Assembly (NCBI GenBank): GCA_963726785.1
Contig: CAVSDJ010000007.1
Span: forward strand, 2,484,615 to 2,548,614
Direction: 5' to 3'
From: Blastocatellia bacterium
Lineage (GTDB): Bacteria; Acidobacteriota; Blastocatellia; UBA7656
DNA length: 64,000 nucleotides
The notes under the pieces were generated by a model. The model was not told the DNA's origin and searched no databases. It saw only the letters and a program-made list of their open reading frames with translations. The translations under genes and the position numbers were made by a program. Of this stretch, positions 47,601 to 63,403 are shown one piece after another. Numbering within the stretch: position 1 is the stretch's first letter; each line of letters begins with the position of its first letter.

Positions 47601-47733
47601 TCCATCGAACAAGGATGTAACGATGAGGAGCTATCCAGCCGCGTAGCGGCGCGTGAGTTTAGCCGTGCACTGAAGTACACGGCTAAATTCAACCTGCCGC
47701 TAACGCGGCTGGGCAGGCCGAGGAGTTACAATA

Positions 47734-54995: not shown

Positions 54996-55271
54996 TTAAC
55001 CGCCCGCGATAGCAGGGACTATCGAAACCTCTGCGCGCTCAGGAACTCGCGTTGACAGGTTATCCAGAAAGCGCACGTCTTCGCCGTCAATGTAGATGTT
55101 GATGAATCGGCGAAGCTGGCCTCCGTCTTCGCACACGCGCGCGCGAAATCCGGGATAACGCTCGTCCAATCGATCTAAAATATCTTTCACGGTTTCAGCC
55201 TCGACCTCTACCGCATCGGCGTTCTCTGTCAACCTGCGCAGCAACGTTGGAATGATTACTTTGTGTGACAT
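54996..55271 (-). CDS. MoaD/ThiS family sulfur carrier protein
   Basis: IPT.LR, RRFINIY..GEDVRF, C-terminal PAIAGG. Confidence 0.92.
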
Positions 55272-55300: not shown

Positions 55301-56539
55301 CTACGCCTTAGCCGCAAGCCCCGTGATCGCCTGCTCGAACTGTTTCAGTCGAGGCTCGATTGCGACAGGCGGCGCAAGCTCTATTGCTTCTTGAGTCTTC
55401 AATCCGTTTCCGGTGATGGCAATCACAGTTAAATCGTCAGGCTTGATGCGGCCCTGCTCGATGAGCTTTCTGGTCACGGCGACGGTCACGCCGCCCGCCG
55501 TTTCTGTGAAGACGCCTTCGGTCTCGGCCAGCAAACGGATGCCTGCGACGATCTCTTCATCCGTCACGTCTTCGGCCCAGCCGCCGCTTTCTGCGATCAC
55601 ACCAGCCGCAAGATAGCCGTCAGCCGGATTGCCTATGGCGAGCGACTTTGCAATCGTTGCGGGTTTGAGCGGACGAATGTCGCGCGCACCTCGCTTCACC
55701 GCATCAACTATCGGGTTACACCCCGCAGCTTGCGCGCCGTAAACACGTGTGTGAACCTCATCTTCGAGAAGCCCGAGTTGTTCGAGTTCTTTCAGCCCTT
55801 TGTGAATCTTCGTAATTAGCGAGCCGCCAGCCATCGGCACAATCACGGCATCGGGCGCGCGCCATCCGAGTTGTTCGGCTATTTCATAACCGAAAGTCTT
55901 CGAGCCTTCGCCGTAATACGGCCTGAGATTTACGTTGACGAATCCCCAGGGGAATCGGTCGGCTATCTCGCTGCACAGCCGGTTCACGTCGTCGTAGTTG
56001 CCGCGCACAGCGATGACGCGCGCGCCATAAACAGATGTAGCGTTGATCTTGCTGCGCTCCAGGTTTTCAGGAATCAAGACGTAAGCGGGCAGTCCTGCCG
56101 CCGCCGCGTTGGCCGCGACAGAGTTTGCGAGGTTGCCCGTCGAAGCGCAGCCGACAGCTTCGAGCTTGAACTCGATTGCTTTATTGATGGCGACAGCCGT
56201 CACGCGATCTTTGAATGAAAGCGTCGGGGCGTTGACGCTGTCGTTTTTGATGTAGAGATTGCCTGCGCCGAGCGCGCGTGCGAGTCGGTCTGCGCGAATT
56301 AACGGAGTCGCTCCGCTCGTGCGGCCTACGGTCGGCTCCGTATCGAGCGGCAGAAGTTCGCGGTATCGCCACAGAGTCTTTTCGCGCGACTCGATCACTT
56401 CGCGCGACAACACGCGCGCTATTGCGTCGTAATCGTAAGCGACCTCAAGCGGCGCGAAGCAGTCTTCGCAACCGGCTATAAGGCTCTTGGGGTAAAAGCG
56501 TCCGCACTCGCGGCATTTCAATCCTTTTACATGACTCAT
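55301..56539 (-). CDS. thrC: threonine synthase-like PLP enzyme (possibly a sulfhydrylase)
   Basis: N-terminal CxxC..Cxx[35 protein letters not shown]. Confidence 0.85.
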
Positions 56540-56590
56540 TTGTTCACCTCCGGGTTCATGGTTAATCGGATACAGCCACGGGCAGCAGGG

Positions 56591-56628
56591 AAAAGAAAAG
56601 GCCCCGCGCCAACTAGCGCGGGGCCTTT
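56591..56628 (-). terminator. intrinsic terminator of riboswitch 2
   Basis: AAAGGCCCCGCGC-N6-GCGCGGGGCCTTTTCTTTT on minus strand. Confidence 0.8.
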
Positions 56629-56640
56629 CAAATCCTTCCG

Positions 56641-56689
56641 GGCTGTTTAGCAGTTTTTAACGTGGAGCAAGTTGCCTAAATCGCCACGT
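56641..56689 (-). ncRNA. SAM-II-type riboswitch, downstream copy
   Basis: ACGTGGCGATTTAGGCAACTTGCTCCACGTTAAAAACTGCTAAAC resembles the SAM-II pattern CGUGG.GAUUU...UUGC..CCACGU.AAA...GCUAAA. Confidence 0.78.
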
Positions 56690-56712
56690 ATCAGTTGTTG
56701 AAAGAGCAAAAT

Positions 56713-56744
56713 AAAAACCCTGCGCCAAATCAGCGCAGGGTTTT
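56713..56744 (-). terminator. intrinsic terminator of riboswitch 1
   Basis: AAAACCCTGCGC-N7-GCGCAGGGTTTTT on minus strand. Confidence 0.8.
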
Positions 56745-56755
56745 GAAAATCCTTT

Positions 56756-56806
56756 CGCGATTTAGCACATATTTAACGTGGAGCAAGTTGCCTTAAATCA
56801 CCACGT
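56756..56806 (-). ncRNA. SAM-II-type riboswitch, upstream copy
   Basis: ACGTGGTGATTTAAGGCAACTTGCTCCACGTTAAATATGTGCTAAATCG. Confidence 0.78.
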
Positions 56807-56823
56807 CCGTTTTCGGATGCTTC

Positions 56824-56853
56824 AAGGTACATCCAATGAGCTTCCGATGTCAA
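56824..56853 (-). promoter_or_regulatory. putative sigma70 promoter for riboswitch-thrC-moaD
   Basis: TTGACA-N18-TACCTT just upstream of aptamer 1. Confidence 0.55.
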
Positions 56854-56870: not shown

Positions 56871-56942
56871 CGATGAACACAGATGAAACATTTCACGGAT
56901 AGAAGCAATTCGCGAATTCAAATGTTTCATCTGTGTTCATCG
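56871..56942. repeat. palindrome (CGATGAACACAGATGAAACATTT...AAATGTTTCATCTGTGTTCATCG)
   Basis: 23-bp perfect inverted arms. Confidence 0.8.
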
Positions 56943-56948
56943 GCAATC

Positions 56949-57164
56949 TCATTCACACCCGATCTTCAGATGTTTCTGGTCTTTGCTGACATGCTCATAG
57001 GTTATTGCTTCGGGATTGAAAGAGATGCTCGAATCAAATTCGCGCAGGTCGCGAGCGAAAGCGCGCACCGAATCGGCCACGAATGCGTGGAACTCCTGCT
57101 CGCTTGAATAACGCCCCTTGTAACGCAGCAGATGAGCCATCAAGTCTCCATATTCTTTCTTCAT
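56949..57164 (-). CDS. small hypothetical protein (71 aa), probably sigma54-dependent
   Basis: GAAAGGAG RBS; sigma54 motif upstream. Confidence 0.65.
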   Translation of the reverse strand: MKKEYGDLMAHLLRYKGRYSSEQEFHAFVADSVRAFARDLREFDSSISFNPEAITYEHVSKDQKHLKIGCE

Positions 57165-57452: not shown

Positions 57453-59030
57453 CTAACGGAAGCGGGCGCAATCTATGGCGTATTTTTTTACTTTGTAGCC
57501 GAGTATCCGCTCGGTCGTGTCCAGTAATTTTGCCGCGCGGGCGCGGTTGCCTCGCGCAGTCTTGAGCGCATCCAGAATCAAATCTTTCTCGTAAGCTTCG
57601 ACCGCCGTGACAAGCGACAATCTGGTTACTGTGCCGCTTGATGAAGCTGTCTGCAAAGTCGGTGGCAGGTGATGCCCGTGTATGACGTTCCCGTCGCAGA
57701 CAAGCGCCGCGCGCTCGATGCAGTTTTCAAGCTCGCGCACGTTGCCCGGCCAGTGATAAGCCGTCAGCATGTCAATCGCAGGAGTCGAGATGCGCTTGAT
57801 GTTCTTGCCGTGCTCGTGCGAGTACTTCTCAAGGAAATGATCCGCCAGCAGCAACACATCGGGCTTTCGCTCTCTGAGCGGCGGCACGAATATGGTAAAA
57901 ACGTTGAGCCTGTAAAACAGGTCTTCGCGGAACGCGCCCTCGGTGATAGCTTTTTCCAATTCTTTGTTCGTAGCCACGATCAGCCTGACGTTGATCTTCA
58001 CGGTTTCGATGCCGCCCAATCGCTCGAACTCGCGCTCTTGCAACACGCGCAGCAGCTTCACCTGAGTCGAAAGATTCAAGTCGCCTATCTCATCCAAAAA
58101 CAGAGTGCCGCCTTCGGCCAAGTCGAAGCGACCTTTTTTGCGAGCCTGCGCTCCGGTGAACGCCCCCTTCTCGTAGCCGAAAAGTTCCGACTCGATCAAT
58201 GTTTCTGGCAGCGCGGCGCAGCTAACCTTGATCAACGGCTTGTTGGCTCTCGGCGAGTTGTAGTGAATAGAATGAGCGATCAACTCTTTGCCCGTTCCCG
58301 AATCGCCGCGTATCAACACGGTCGTGTTAGTGCGCGCGACCTGCGCGACTTGCTCGTAGACCAGACGCATCGGGCCACTGTTGCCTACTATGTTCGTGAA
58401 ATCGTATCGTTCTTTGAGTTCTTGCCGCAGGTGAATGTTCTCGTCCAACAAGCGTTGTCGCTCGGCTTCGACCGAACGCTGAACCTTGACCGCTTGAGCG
58501 ATCATCGAAGCTATCACGCGCAGAAAGCGGACCGTGCGATCATAATCGCGGTCTTTCTTGAAACGCAGGTCAATTCCGATAGCTCCTACGGACTTGCGAT
58601 TGAGAATGATCGGCACGCATACAAAAGTCAGCTCCTGCCTGCCCAGTTCTTTGCGCTGCGCCGCGCGATTCAAGAACAAGGGCTCGCGGCTGACCTGCGG
58701 CACGACTATATGTTTGCCGCTTTCGACAACGCGCCCCGTGATCCCTTCGCCAATCTTGTAGCGAGCGCGTTGCCCATCGGCTGTGATCCCGTTGGCCGCC
58801 TCTATGTGAAGCTCATCCGAATCATCGTGGAGCAAGGTCACAGTGCTGCGAATCATTCCGTGATGTTGTTCAAGTATCTCCAGCACGCGATGAAGCGCCG
58901 CCCTCAGATTGAGCGTAGTAGAAAGCGCCTGGCTCACATCGAGCAATGTGGTTAGCTTCCTTATTTCGCCTGTCTTGTCTGTCATTTGCAATCCTGATTT
59001 AGATAACGCAATCCCGGTCAGAGACTGCAT
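57453..59030 (-). CDS. sigma54-dependent activator, NifA-like (GAF-AAA+-HTH)
   Basis: GAF (GEGITG), [37 protein letters not shown], Fis-type HTH. Confidence 0.93.
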
Positions 59031-59542: not shown

Positions 59543-60370
59543 ATGAATGATCGGGCGGGAAAAATCGGAAAGATTTATTTGATCGGCGCAGGGCCGGGCG
59601 ACCCGAAACTGCTCACGATCAAGGCAGCCGAGTGCATAGCCGCTGCTGACGTGATCGTTTACGATTATCTGGTTAACCCGGAAGTGTTAGCGCATGCTCG
59701 GCGCGGCGCAGAGTTGATCTACGCGGGCAAACGCGCGGGCGAGCCTTCTGTTTCGCAATCCGAGATCAATCGCATAATCATCGAACAGGCTCAGGCGGGC
59801 CGCGTAGTCGCGCGGCTCAAAGGCGGCGACCCGTTCATATTTGGTCGCGGCGGCGAAGAGGCCGAAGCGCTCGTTCAGGCAGGCATCGAATGGGAAGTCA
59901 TACCGGGCATATCTTCGGGCGTAGCCGCTGCCGCATACTGTGGCATCCCTCTCACCCATCGCAATTACGCTTCGAGCGTTGCATTTTTCACAGGCCACGA
60001 TAATCCCAACAAAAACAGGCAAGCCGTTAACTGGCGGGTCGCCGGAAACGCTGCCGATACGCTTGTGATTTTCATGTGCGCTGAAACTATCGCAAAGATC
60101 GCGCGCGAACTCATAAATGGTGGCCGCGCGCCTCAGACGCCTATAGCCATCATCCGATGGGGAACCTACGAGCATCAGGAAATCTATTCAGGCTCGCTCG
60201 AAGAGATTGCGGCGGGCGAAATTGAGCGAATGCGCATCGAGCCGCCAGCCATCGCGATTGTCGGCGACGTTGTGTCGCTCAAAGACAAACTGCACTGGTT
60301 CGGCAATCCGGCGCTTGAATATTCGCTCGAAGAACTCGCCTGTGAAGGTTTAATCGGAGGAATCAAGTGA
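59543..60370 (+). CDS. cobA: uroporphyrinogen-III C-methyltransferase
   Basis: LIGAGPGDP.LLT, RLKGGDPFIFGRGGEE, IPLTHR. Confidence 0.95.
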   Translation: MNDRAGKIGKIYLIGAGPGDPKLLTIKAAECIAAADVIVYDYLVNPEVLAHARRGAELIYAGKRAGEPSVSQSEINRIIIEQAQAGRVVARLKGGDPFIFGRGGEEAEALVQAGIEWEVIPGISSGVAAAAYCGIPLTHRNYASSVAFFTGHDNPNKNRQAVNWRVAGNAADTLVIFMCAETIAKIARELINGGRAPQTPIAIIRWGTYEHQEIYSGSLEEIAAGEIERMRIEPPAIAIVGDVVSLKDKLHWFGNPALEYSLEELACEGLIGGIK

Positions 60371-61143
60371 TGCAGATTGAAAGTGAACTCGTCAGTCTCG
60401 CCTACAAACCCTCGAATAGAATAGAGGCCGCAGCCGTGCGCCTCGAAGACGCTACACCGGCAGAGACGCTCGCCTGGGCGTTTGATGAGTTTGGTGATCG
60501 CGCGGGAATTGCCACAGGGTTTGGCGCGGAAGGCATGGCGCTCATCCACATGGCAGTCCAGGTCAATCCGCATCCGAACATATTCTTTCTCGACACCGGC
60601 TTTCTTTTTCCAGAAACATACGAACTGCGCCGCCGCATCGAAGACCGTTACCAGATAGAGATTCGCGCCGTTCAAACTGCCGTCACGCCAGCCTCGCAAG
60701 AAGAGATGTTCGGGCCGAAGCTCTGGTCGCGCGACCCTGACCTCTGCTGCCGAATCAGAAAACTTGAACCGCTGAAAGAAGAGTTGAGCGAACTGAGCGC
60801 GTGGATAACGGCAATCCGGCGCGACCAGACCGCCGCGCGAGCAAGCGCCCGCGCAGTTGAATGGGACGCGCGCTGGCAGCTTGTGAAGGTCAATCCGCTC
60901 ATCCGTTTCAGCAAGCGCGATGTTTGGAGTTACATCTTGAAAAACGATGTGCCTTATAACCCGCTGCACGATGCGGGCTATCCGAGCATCGGCTGCACGC
61001 ACTGCACGCGCGCCGTCGGCGAAGGCGAAGACGAACGCGCAGGTCGCTGGTCTGGTCACGCGAAGACTGAATGCGGGCTTCACAGTGAAGCGCCGAAACT
61101 GAGTGAAAGGCCGAAACTGGTTCCGCTAAAAGTTCAGCTTTGA
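60367..61143 (+). CDS. cysH: (phospho)adenylyl-sulfate reductase
   Basis: LDTGFLFPET, CCRIRK.EPL, GYPSIGCTHCT, RAGRW, ECGLH. Confidence 0.95.
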   Translation: MMQIESELVSLAYKPSNRIEAAAVRLEDATPAETLAWAFDEFGDRAGIATGFGAEGMALIHMAVQVNPHPNIFFLDTGFLFPETYELRRRIEDRYQIEIRAVQTAVTPASQEEMFGPKLWSRDPDLCCRIRKLEPLKEELSELSAWITAIRRDQTAARASARAVEWDARWQLVKVNPLIRFSKRDVWSYILKNDVPYNPLHDAGYPSIGCTHCTRAVGEGEDERAGRWSGHAKTECGLHSEAPKLSERPKLVPLKVQL

Positions 61144-61179
61144 AATTTCAAATTCGATATACGAGGAGACAATCGCAAC

Positions 61180-61767
61180 ATGGGAAGCAAAGGACAGGTA
61201 ATCTGGCTCACGGGTCTTTCGGGCGCGGGCAAAACTACGCTCGCTCGCGCGCTTCGCGGTGAGCTTACAGCTTTGGGGTATCGCGTTGAAACGCTCGACG
61301 GTGACGAGGTGCGCGAGAATTTGAGCCGTGGGCTTACATTCTCGAAAGAAGACCGCGAAACCAACGTCCGTCGCATAGGTTTCGTCGCGCGACTGCTGGC
61401 GCGCAATGGCGTAATAGTGCTCGCCTCAGCCATCTCGCCGTACCGGCAGTCCCGCGACGATGTTCGCCGCTCGGTTGAAAGCGACGGCGCGCAGTTCATT
61501 GAAGTTTTTGTCGGCTGTCCGCTTCAGGTATTGATCGAGCGCGATGTGAAAGGGCTCTACAAAAAAGCGCTCGCGGGCGAGATCGAAAATTTCACAGGCA
61601 TCAGCGACCCTTATGAAGTACCGCTCGCGCCTGATGTTGTGATTGACAGTTCCGCTGAATCGGTTGAAGAGAGCGCCGCGCTAATACTAGAGCGACTGAT
61701 CGAAAGCGGCGCGCTCGCAAACCGACAGACTCAACCAGCGGTTGAGTCTGTCGAAGCGGCGTATTGA
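61180..61767 (+). CDS. cysC: adenylyl-sulfate kinase
   Basis: [34 protein letters not shown]. Confidence 0.96.
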
Positions 61768-61783
61768 GATTTTGAGGTGAATC

Positions 61784-63403
61784 ATGAATATCGAAGAAGT
61801 CAAAAAACGCAAGGACGGGCTTGATGTAATTCACGACATCTATCGCTATGCGCAGCTTGGGCATAAGGCCGTAACGCCTGATGACGAGGCGCTGTTTCGC
61901 TGGCATGGCATCTATACGCAGAGGCCCGCCGAAGACGGATTTTTCATGGTTCGCCTCCGCATACCGGGCGGCGACCTGACGCCTGAGCAGTTGCGCCTGA
62001 TAGCCGATTTATCCAACGAACACGGGCGCGGGCTTGCTGACATAACAGTGCGGCAAAACATTCAGCTTCATTGGGTGAGAATCGAAAGCCTGCCCGACAT
62101 ACTTGATCGCCTGCGCGATATTGGGCTTTCGACGACCGAAGCTTGCGGCGACTGCGTGCGCAACATAATCAACTGCCCTGTGTCGGGCGCGGACGCACAT
62201 GAGCTTTACGACACGACTCCGCTCCTGCGCGAGATCAATGATTACTTCGTCGGCAACCGCGACTTCTCGAATCTGCCGCGCAAATTCAAAATCGCGGTCA
62301 CAGGCTGTCACGTGCGATGCGTTTATCCTGAGATCAACGACGTAGGCATATTCGCCGTGCGCGACCCGGAAGCGGGAGTCGCATTTCGCGCACGCGTCGG
62401 AGGCGGGCTTTCGACCACGCCGCGATTCTCGAAAGACCTCGGCGTTCTGGTCGGGCCGGATGAAGTAGTCGAGTTGTGCGCCGCAGTCGCATCGGTCTTT
62501 CGCGACGAAGGCAACCGCGCAAACCGCAAGCGCGCGCGATTGAAATTTCTCGTCGAGCAATGGGAGATACCTCGATTCCGCGAAGAGGTCGAAGCGCGAT
62601 TGGGGCGCAAACTTCGCCGCGCAGAAAGCCCGGATGCCGAACCGATAACAGAACGTGATCGCACGCATCTCGGCATACATCAGCAGCGCGAGCGGGGGCT
62701 TAATTACGTCGGCATCTCGATACTTGGCGGTCGAACGTCGGGCGATGAGTTGAAGCGATTGGCCACGCTCGCCGAAGATTATGGCAGCGGTCGCGTGCGA
62801 ACTACGAACACACAAAACATAATCCTGCTTGATGTGCCCGATCAGAAGCTCAGTTCGCTCAGGCAAGAACTTGACCGTAGCCATCTCGATTACAAGCCGA
62901 GTTGGGCGCGTCGCGGGATAATCGCTTGCACGGGCGTTCAATTCTGCAAGCTCGCGCTTGCCGAAACGAAAAATCGCGCGGTCGAGTTGGATGAGTATCT
63001 CGCAAATAATGTCGCTTTAGACGACGGAGTTCGCATCAGCGTCACGGGATGTCCGAACTCTTGCGGCCAACATCACATTTGCGACGTAGGACTTGAGGGG
63101 TCGCTGACGACCATCAACGGCGTGAAGCGAGAGACGTTTCAGGTATTTTTAGGCGGCGGCGTAGGCTTACACGAAACCTTTGGCCGCCGAGTAGGCGCGC
63201 GCATTCCTTCAGATGAACTTGCGGAATCGCTTGCGCGATTGTTTGCGCGGTACAAGGAAGACCATACGCCCGACGAGACATTTCAAGAATACTGTTTGCG
63301 ACACAGCAATGAGGAGTTGGTCTCATATCTGGCTCCGCCCTTAGCCGTAACCGATACTGCGGCAACACAAGCGGAGGCCAAGTCAAATAATCTCTGTAGT
63401 TGA
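61784..63403 (+). CDS. sir: ferredoxin-dependent sulfite (nitrite) reductase
   Basis: GIYTQR, FMVRLRIPGG, NLPRKFK, ACTG..FC, TGCPNSC; position in cys operon. Confidence 0.88.
   Translation: MNIEEVKKRKDGLDVIHDIYRYAQLGHKAVTPDDEALFRWHGIYTQRPAEDGFFMVRLRIPGGDLTPEQLRLIADLSNEHGRGLADITVRQNIQLHWVRIESLPDILDRLRDIGLSTTEACGDCVRNIINCPVSGADAHELYDTTPLLREINDYFVGNRDFSNLPRKFKIAVTGCHVRCVYPEINDVGIFAVRDPEAGVAFRARVGGGLSTTPRFSKDLGVLVGPDEVVELCAAVASVFRDEGNRANRKRARLKFLVEQWEIPRFREEVEARLGRKLRRAESPDAEPITERDRTHLGIHQQRERGLNYVGISILGGRTSGDELKRLATLAEDYGSGRVRTTNTQNIILLDVPDQKLSSLRQELDRSHLDYKPSWARRGIIACTGVQFCKLALAETKNRAVELDEYLANNVALDDGVRISVTGCPNSCGQHHICDVGLEGSLTTINGVKRETFQVFLGGGVGLHETFGRRVGARIPSDELAESLARLFARYKEDHTPDETFQEYCLRHSNEELVSYLAPPLAVTDTAATQAEAKSNNLCS

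Follow-up and report, generated by a model that had tools for sequence, protein, structure and literature searches.

The minus strand of the window (the whole stretch of DNA that was analysed, 64,000 nt) carries the entire feature described here, which is the leader of an ORF beginning at 56539. The leader contains two riboswitch units, A and B, whose aptamers start at 56806 and 56689 (an offset of 117 nt), and the genes behind it encode a PLP enzyme and a small sulfur carrier. The elements, in the order of transcription, are:

56824..56853, minus strand: likely sigma-70-type promoter, called from the sequence and of presumed function (−35 TTGACA, 56853-56848; −10-like TACCTT, 56829-56824; spacer 18 nt)
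56757..56806, minus strand: SAM-II-type aptamer A (RF00521 match, descriptor match, model R1)
56806-56801 with 56781-56776, minus strand: P1 of aptamer A, with L1 GAUUU at 56799-56795
56786-56783 with 56766-56762, minus strand: P2b of aptamer A, UUGC with GCUAA; P2a has only ~2 bp
56708..56744, minus strand: terminator A (12-bp arms, 7-nt loop, U tract 56717-56708)
56732-56721 with the aptamer A tail 56769-56758, minus strand: predicted antiterminator A (12 bp, three of them G-U)
56640..56689, minus strand: SAM-II-type aptamer B (RF00521 match, descriptor match, relatives' model)
56689-56684 with 56665-56660, minus strand: P1 of aptamer B, with L1 GAUUU at 56682-56678
56670-56667 with 56651-56647, minus strand: P2b of aptamer B, UUGC with GCUAA
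56676-56674 with 56643-56641, minus strand: P2a of aptamer B, GGC with GCC
56591..56629, minus strand: terminator B (13-bp arms, 6-nt loop, U tract 56599-56591)
56612-56607 with the aptamer B tail 56652-56647, minus strand: predicted antiterminator B (6 bp contiguous)
56547..56551, minus strand: Shine-Dalgarno-like GGAGG, ~40 nt downstream of terminator B
55301..56539, minus strand: threonine-synthase-family PLP enzyme of 412 aa whose N-terminus carries CxxC motifs (TIGR00260 thrC, 280 bits; PF00291)
54996..55271, minus strand: 91-aa MoaD/ThiS-family sulfur carrier ending in Gly-Gly (PF02597, NF041918)

No ORF lies between units A and B, and each unit is a complete switch with a terminator platform of its own. 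Hairpin and U tract, as called by the scans for terminator-like hairpins and inverted repeats, span 56744-56714 in unit A and 56629-56596 in unit B. In all 22 two-aptamer leaders inspected, TTGAC precedes the first aptamer by at most 62 nt, and the promoter at 56824..56853 is absent from the matches of the consensus promoter scan. A second promoter before unit B was considered and rejected, its −10-like bases being those of the terminator A U tract and not conserved. Translational control was also rejected, as the Shine-Dalgarno-like site lies outside both aptamers.

Several other elements surround the leader. Just upstream of the promoter there is a perfect 23-bp inverted repeat with a 26-nt spacer (56871-56942), single-copy in the genome and otherwise seen in one same-genus relative only, which may mark the end of an upstream transcript and insulate the riboswitch promoter. 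Further upstream, a 71-aa ORF (56949-57164, minus strand) without a Pfam or NCBIfam match is kept in five related loci at 35-93% identity and is covered by soil metatranscriptome contigs; from these data it is likely a real small gene without assigned function. In addition, an Acido-Lenti-1 RNA (RF01687) was recognised at 47637-47682 of the window (minus strand), with 37.5 bits, barely above the cut-off.

The identity of the aptamers was studied with Rfam models, a structural descriptor and comparative data. RF00521 (SAM_alpha) aligned end to end with both of them, and in an E-value search it gave 32.7 bits (E 1e-5) for aptamer B and 21.4 bits (E 0.012) for aptamer A. The gathering threshold of RF00521 is 36 bits, and neither A, nor B, nor a third copy in the genome (32.9 bits) reaches it; for RF01726 (SAM-II long loop), whose cut-off is 44 bits, B obtained 17.2 bits and no match was listed for A. 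Because both score under 36 bits, a scan of the window at the Rfam gathering threshold finds neither aptamer. The remaining Rfam matches of the E-value search (miRNA, snoRNA, Leu/Thr leaders and F6) were rejected since they fit generic hairpins only. SAM-I (RF00162) was not found in the genome among the 150 of 488 candidates scored, and the Rfam E-value search listed no SAM-V match in the leader region.

A SAM-II pseudoknot descriptor identified three sites in the 8.9-Mb genome, two of them being A and B, and 0, 0, 0, 1 and 0 sites in five shuffled genomes, from which it follows that the A and B sites are not due to chance. The same three sites were recovered by a model built from the aptamers of relatives. 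Model R1 gives aptamer A 66.6 bits, a score for a sequence that is itself in the alignment of the model. According to PMC3764141, the SAM-II pocket and its triples comprise G8, U10-U12 of L1 and, for P2b, U20, U21, G22, C23, G42, C43, U44 and A45-A47, and every base in this list has a counterpart in both A and B. Both units also fit an H-type pseudoknot with a 6-bp P1 and a 4-bp P2b.

Covariation was analysed in an alignment of 76 sequences chosen from 109 distinct aptamers among the matches listed. P1 and P2b are invariant in it because the search pattern fixed them, and P2a was left free. P2a covaries, with changes on both sides at 3 of 3 pairs and 88% of cells paired in the 76 aligned aptamers. 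The covariation score of the whole structure was reached by none of 500 shuffles, and sliding the partners by −1 gave 22 both-side changes, more than the 18 of the true structure. By structure, pocket and context, the pair is SAM-II without belonging to the Rfam families at their thresholds. A SAM-II-like variant for another ligand, for instance SAH or another sulfur metabolite, could also explain why the aptamers lie below the RF00521 and RF01726 cut-offs and why their loops are shorter than in the Rfam consensus. However, the score is lost through loop deletions and flanks, one close relative's aptamer is above the RF00521 cut-off (37 bits) and no pocket base departs from the SAM-II set, so that we give this explanation very little chance.

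The claim of the earlier note that the leader carries two SAM-II-type riboswitches in tandem, both with an intrinsic terminator of their own, is therefore borne out by the RF00521 and descriptor matches, the covariation of P2a and the hairpins with their U tracts. Its view of the aptamers as near-identical applies to the 25-nt core common to A and B (96% identity); tails and platforms differ, and conservedly so. The GGATTT linker that it described is common to both copies in the window but is not kept in relatives, and for this reason it is probably not a functional element.

A further SAM-II unit, which is single, lies elsewhere in the genome (G000:C8:2002979, minus strand; L001:1470-1570), downstream of the end of an aspartokinase-like gene and with an antisense-loop terminator of its own. 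It precedes a gene for a PRK08645 bifunctional homocysteine S-methyltransferase/MTHFR (yitJ-like).

Terminators accompany most of the related aptamers: among the matches listed, one lies within 110 nt of 127 of 137 aptamers and none was called for the other 10. The motif TTT[AG]GC, which is the antisense of the aptamer tail GCUAAA, stands in the loop and at the start of the 3' arm of 92 of the 126 distinct terminators among the matches listed, and this exact motif is absent from 34. It occurs in only 4 of 229 terminator-like hairpins genome-wide, which were called with a hairpin finder different from the one used for the relatives. In the 92 terminators with the motif, the base after GCUAAA covaries with the base before TTT (G-C 50, C-G 29, G-U 7, U-A 2, A-C 3, G-G 1). 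The flanking pair is Watson-Crick in 81 of the 92 terminators and in 43 on average after permutation, a difference that kinship inflates, yet three pair types occur; as relatives are not independent, the permutation and Fisher values overstate the case. In A units alone (n=21) the antiterminator pair is C-G in 15, U-A in 5 and U-G in 1.

Folding of growing transcripts predicted a ligand-free helix between tail and terminator at transcript lengths of 78-88 in unit A and 80-84 in unit B, and with the aptamer blocked, as it would be with SAM bound, the terminator closed earlier. For both units, the minimum-energy structure of the RNA that contains the complete hairpin is the terminator, with or without ligand, so that read-through must be kinetic. 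The contiguous antiterminator of unit B has only 6 bp because the host's genus lost one U; in the folding, its pairing continues beyond a small internal loop.

The aptamer tail corresponds to the P2 strand that is protected by SAM in the metX riboswitch (PMC10907184). At low SAM, the free tail (GCUAAA and its neighbours) would pair with the loop of the emerging terminator and the first bases of its 3' arm, and this antiterminator would prevent the terminator from closing and give read-through. At high SAM, the tail would be held in the P2 pseudoknot triplex and no antiterminator would form, so that the hairpin would close at the U tract, transcription would stop and the genes would be off. From directly observed sequences, complementarity, covariation, gene context and conservation we infer SAM binding, termination, and the thresholds and enzyme activity discussed below, and we put at roughly 0.85 the probability that these two SAM-II-type aptamers in series, with their tail-complementary terminators, are SAM-dependent transcriptional OFF switches of what is likely a methionine-pathway operon. 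The new point here is the likely switch, with an explicit antiterminator predicted from the complementarity of the aptamer tail to the loop and 3' arm of the terminator.

In the RNA data, one run covers the region (share 0.06), in the form of contigs without ends or strand. A contig of 158 nt from a relative (depth 3.7) spans 56646-56803, and two of its differences are partners in the terminator A stem (C-G to U-A), with the terminator kept and the antiterminator mismatched.

The tandem is conserved. Two aptamers are present in this leader in 21 of 25 genomes of the host's family (its own and 24 more); among the remaining ones, one has unit B only and in three no such leader was found (one of these genomes being 72% complete). 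Other families of the class have tandems as well; at least 14 are among the matches listed, 11 of them before a thrC-like gene. In 20 of the 21 genomes, unit A resembles the A of another genome more than the B beside it. A tree separates the copies by type, A from B, with 3 changes versus 14 when shuffled; its support is weak (a star on 1 of 39 branches), and two loci from the same genus were omitted from it. Since A copies resemble other A copies and the tree splits A from B, the duplication is likely old.

The two units are also unequal. Unit A has the more stable tail duplex in 19 of the 19 pairs that could be scored, and unit B has the more stable P2a in 18 of 22 pairs and the more stable terminator in 14 of 21. 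The median contiguous antiterminator has 12 bp in A versus 8 bp in B (12 versus 6 in the window). With a longer antiterminator and a weaker P2a, A likely needs more SAM than B. As both units would be passed in series, their read-through fractions would multiply, lowering the leak and steepening the curve wherever the ranges of A and B overlap; if A does need more SAM, as its sequence makes likely, the response would be flatter than with pure steepening by a tandem.

An extreme form of inequality would be that only unit B is effective and A is a weakened copy with near-constant read-through or fixed-fraction attenuation. A has the lower RF00521 score (21.4 bits) and a P2a of ~2 bp, and its 12-bp antiterminator is perhaps beyond the power of SAM to out-compete. 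In addition, the pocket-flanking base of aptamer A that corresponds to G8 is changed from G to A in one genome of the same genus, which together with the family member that has B only indicates that unit A is dispensable in some lineages. However, in the window A keeps all pocket bases, and 21 of the 25 genomes of the family have an A unit with its own terminator and an antiterminator pair that covaries (C-G 15, U-A 5, U-G 1), none of which is expected of a dead copy. For these reasons we consider it improbable that A is ineffective.

The opposite explanation, in which the units are equal and the tandem does no more than sharpen the response by pseudo-cooperativity, as the earlier note had inferred, has to be taken seriously and has nearly an even chance. 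It is the published reading of SAM-II tandems with two terminators (PMC9481103), the pocket cores are near identical and one relative from another family (L150) has two B-type units. Furthermore, transcription timing could offset the weaker terminator and stronger antiterminator of A. Against equality stand a tail duplex more stable in A in 19 of 19 pairs, a P2a more stable in B in 18 of 22 and antiterminators of 12 versus 8 bp, counts that come from kin and not from independent genomes.

The distribution of these leaders was studied with an exact-pattern scan of GTDB genomes, which gave at least 120 stretches; the 80 with a title are mostly, among the matches listed, from Acidobacteriota (Blastocatellia, Pyrinomonadaceae, Terriglobia). 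The RF00521 cut-off is passed by only 1 of 30 aptamers in 20 tested loci. When the phylum was searched with the relatives' model, at least 16 of 151 genomes were positive (38 candidates per genome scored). No description of a SAM-II subfamily from Acidobacteriota or Blastocatellia was found in the literature searched; PMC12452182 pools the SAM families, and the accessible part of its main text does not mention Acidobacteria.

Methionine- or sulfur-type genes lie downstream in 72 of the 76 leaders with at least 1 kb of flank among the matches listed: thrC-like 47, metB-like 9, yitJ 8, metY-like 6, metX-like 1 and sulfite-reductase-like 1, where the seed labels beyond thrC and yitJ rest on a reading of the ORFs. 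Of these 72, 47 count only if the presumed role of the thrC-like gene in methionine synthesis is accepted, and the other 25 are free of this assumption. The downstream gene is unassigned in 4 of the 76 long-flank leaders and in 17 among the at least 120 stretches, mostly those with short flanks.

Some of the related leaders have other arrangements. Tandem SAM-II leaders precede a carboxypeptidase-regulatory/TonB-receptor-like ORF in L011 and a short-chain dehydrogenase-like ORF in L021 (both labels from reading), possibly reflecting SAM-controlled uptake or an unassigned step. In L094, L103 and L121 the aptamers stand before metY-like genes with no terminator called, and a second CCACG copy is found downstream, near the ribosome site; this sequence arrangement suggests a different, perhaps translational, platform. 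In L069 the aptamer lies directly before a metX-like start, also with no terminator, and two tRNA genes are immediately upstream.

The gene regulated in the window encodes an enzyme 79-85% identical to those of related Blastocatellia loci, and the order thrC-like then MoaD-like is kept across the class. The genome has three other thrC paralogues. No member of the MetA family was found in it (97.7% complete), the best MetX-like match was weak (100.6 bits, with a cut-off that no control genome passed either) and there are two Cys/Met PLP enzymes, one of them above the cystathionine gamma-synthase cut-off. A cysteine synthase, a 227-aa ORF, a Mec-like ORF and a MoaD-MoeZ-rhodanese fusion are clustered at L128:2856-6595 (G000:C1), the Mec-like label being a reading of the translation (a 168-aa ORF with an HSH motif). 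In most relatives, the MoaD domain is found in a frame of 470-670 aa.

In Streptomyces, MetO, Mec, MoeZ and MetM form a route from O-phosphohomoserine to homocysteine (PMC13759103), the metM gene of S. albulus has a SAM riboswitch upstream (PMC12172450) and the supplement of PMC13759103 notes that the annotation of MetM as threonine synthase is a frequent error ("often misannotated"). The genes of such a route are recognisable here, with a thrC homologue and an adjacent Gly-Gly carrier in the operon, and MoeZ and a putative Mec in the genome. A predicted complex of the thrC-like and MoaD-like proteins scored 0.50 against 0.00 for the best control, with runs agreeing in at least 87% of contacts and a partner pLDDT of at least 81. 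The mark used for complexes is reached by 116 of 157 solved pairs and 2 of 215 mismatched pairs, and at 0.60 or below it takes in 18 of the 157 solved pairs and both mismatches. The predicted complex thus gives weak support, and likeness to solved enzyme-carrier complexes may explain its score. No solved structure named MetM is among the sequence relatives of the 412-aa protein. Altogether, the thrC-like and MoaD-like genes probably represent the MetM/MetO homocysteine route. The operon would then make homocysteine from O-phosphohomoserine with a thiocarboxylated carrier.

An ordinary threonine synthase beside an unrelated MoaD-like neighbour, with SAM merely tuning homoserine flux, is the alternative to this assignment. 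The enzyme passes the TIGR00260 thrC cut-off, its closest solved relatives are threonine synthases and a cyanobacterial MetM-like ThrC had threonine synthase activity (PMC12172450). However, the other genes behind the same switch are methionine or sulfur genes, the adjacency of the carrier gene is kept across the class, the genome has three further thrC paralogues and no MetA was found in it. Moreover, a SAM OFF switch suits methionine synthesis and not threonine synthesis. An ordinary threonine synthase is for these reasons unlikely, and the MetM/MetO route is the assignment that we prefer.

About 3 kb from the operon there is a sulfate-assimilation-like cluster (59543-63403, plus strand) with cobA/cysG, cysH-like, cysC-like and sulfite/nitrite reductase genes, the cysH and cysC labels being readings of the ORFs. 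It is divergent from a NifA-like GAF sigma-54 activator (57453-59030).

We propose, tentatively and as a possibility rather than a probability, that the tandem is no mere duplicate but an old and deliberately unequal pair, with a hard-to-trip A and an easy-to-trip B giving a staged or widened response in place of the steeper one that is assumed for tandem riboswitches, and that it belongs to a large Acidobacteriota subfamily missed by Rfam and marks MetM/MetO as a main homocysteine route in these soil bacteria. The doubled SAM-II architecture is already published. What is added here is the Rfam-missed Acidobacteriota subfamily, the covariation-backed antiterminator, the conserved inequality of the units and the likely MetM/MetO target. 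There has been little experimental work so far on SAM-II control of terminators, according to PMC9373788, and these 100-nt units offer an explicit antiterminator that is open to direct testing. The family-wide A/B inequality is a way to ask whether tandems steepen or widen the response. The sub-threshold subfamily, in which 1 of 30 aptamers passes Rfam, brings Acidobacteriota into the range of SAM-II and suggests that many genes annotated as "threonine synthase" likely encode homocysteine synthases.

The aptamers share with SAM-II (metA motif; RF00521; Corbino 2005, PMC1273637; structure 2QWY) P1, the GAUUU loop, the UUGC/GCUAAA pseudoknot and the pocket bases, as well as a promoter close before P1, a terminator after P2 and methionine genes downstream (Corbino 2005, PMC1273637). 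They depart from the Rfam SAM-II consensus in their shorter loops 2 and 3 and in scores under the cut-off. The earlier note had described SAM-II as found mainly in Proteobacteria and Bacteroidetes, usually single and often acting on translation, and its framing of the layout as unusual is not supported: terminators accompany many SAM-II representatives (Corbino 2005, PMC1273637), SAM-II is mostly terminator-linked in alpha- and beta-Proteobacteria (Barrick and Breaker 2007), and 44 tandem SAM-II are known, some with a terminator behind each aptamer (Sherlock 2022, PMC9481103). A terminator loop antisense to the aptamer tail was not found described in the accessible parts of the SAM-II literature searched.

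The closest parallel is the SAM-II/SAM-II tandems of Sherlock 2022 (PMC9481103), which likewise have two aptamers per leader with an intrinsic terminator each. They were read there as pseudo-cooperative, and hence sharper, provided that both switches are similarly sensitive; the leader in the window has the two complete switches of the same class that such a tandem requires. Acidobacteria are mentioned 0 times in the main text of that paper, the leaders studied here may be among the 44 of its supplement, and no discussion of a conserved A/B inequality was found in its accessible sections. The SAM-II/SAM-V bi-mechanism tandem (PMC9481103) also begins with a SAM-II unit with terminator; in contrast to it, the second unit here is again SAM-II with a terminator, and the distant ribosome site is outside the aptamer. 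In the S. meliloti metZ SAM-II riboswitch (PMC9373788) a terminator is also predicted on SAM binding, and the terminated sRNA rises at high SAM; unlike the leader in the window, it is a single unit from an alphaproteobacterium.

With regard to the target, the operon differs from the S. albulus MetM/MetO route (Hasebe 2024, via PMC13759103 and PMC12172450) in that MoeZ here is fused at its N-terminus to a MoaD domain and is encoded on a contig other than that of the operon. As in that route, a threonine-synthase homologue stands beside a sulfur carrier with a SAM riboswitch upstream, and Mec- and MoeZ-like genes are present in the host genome.
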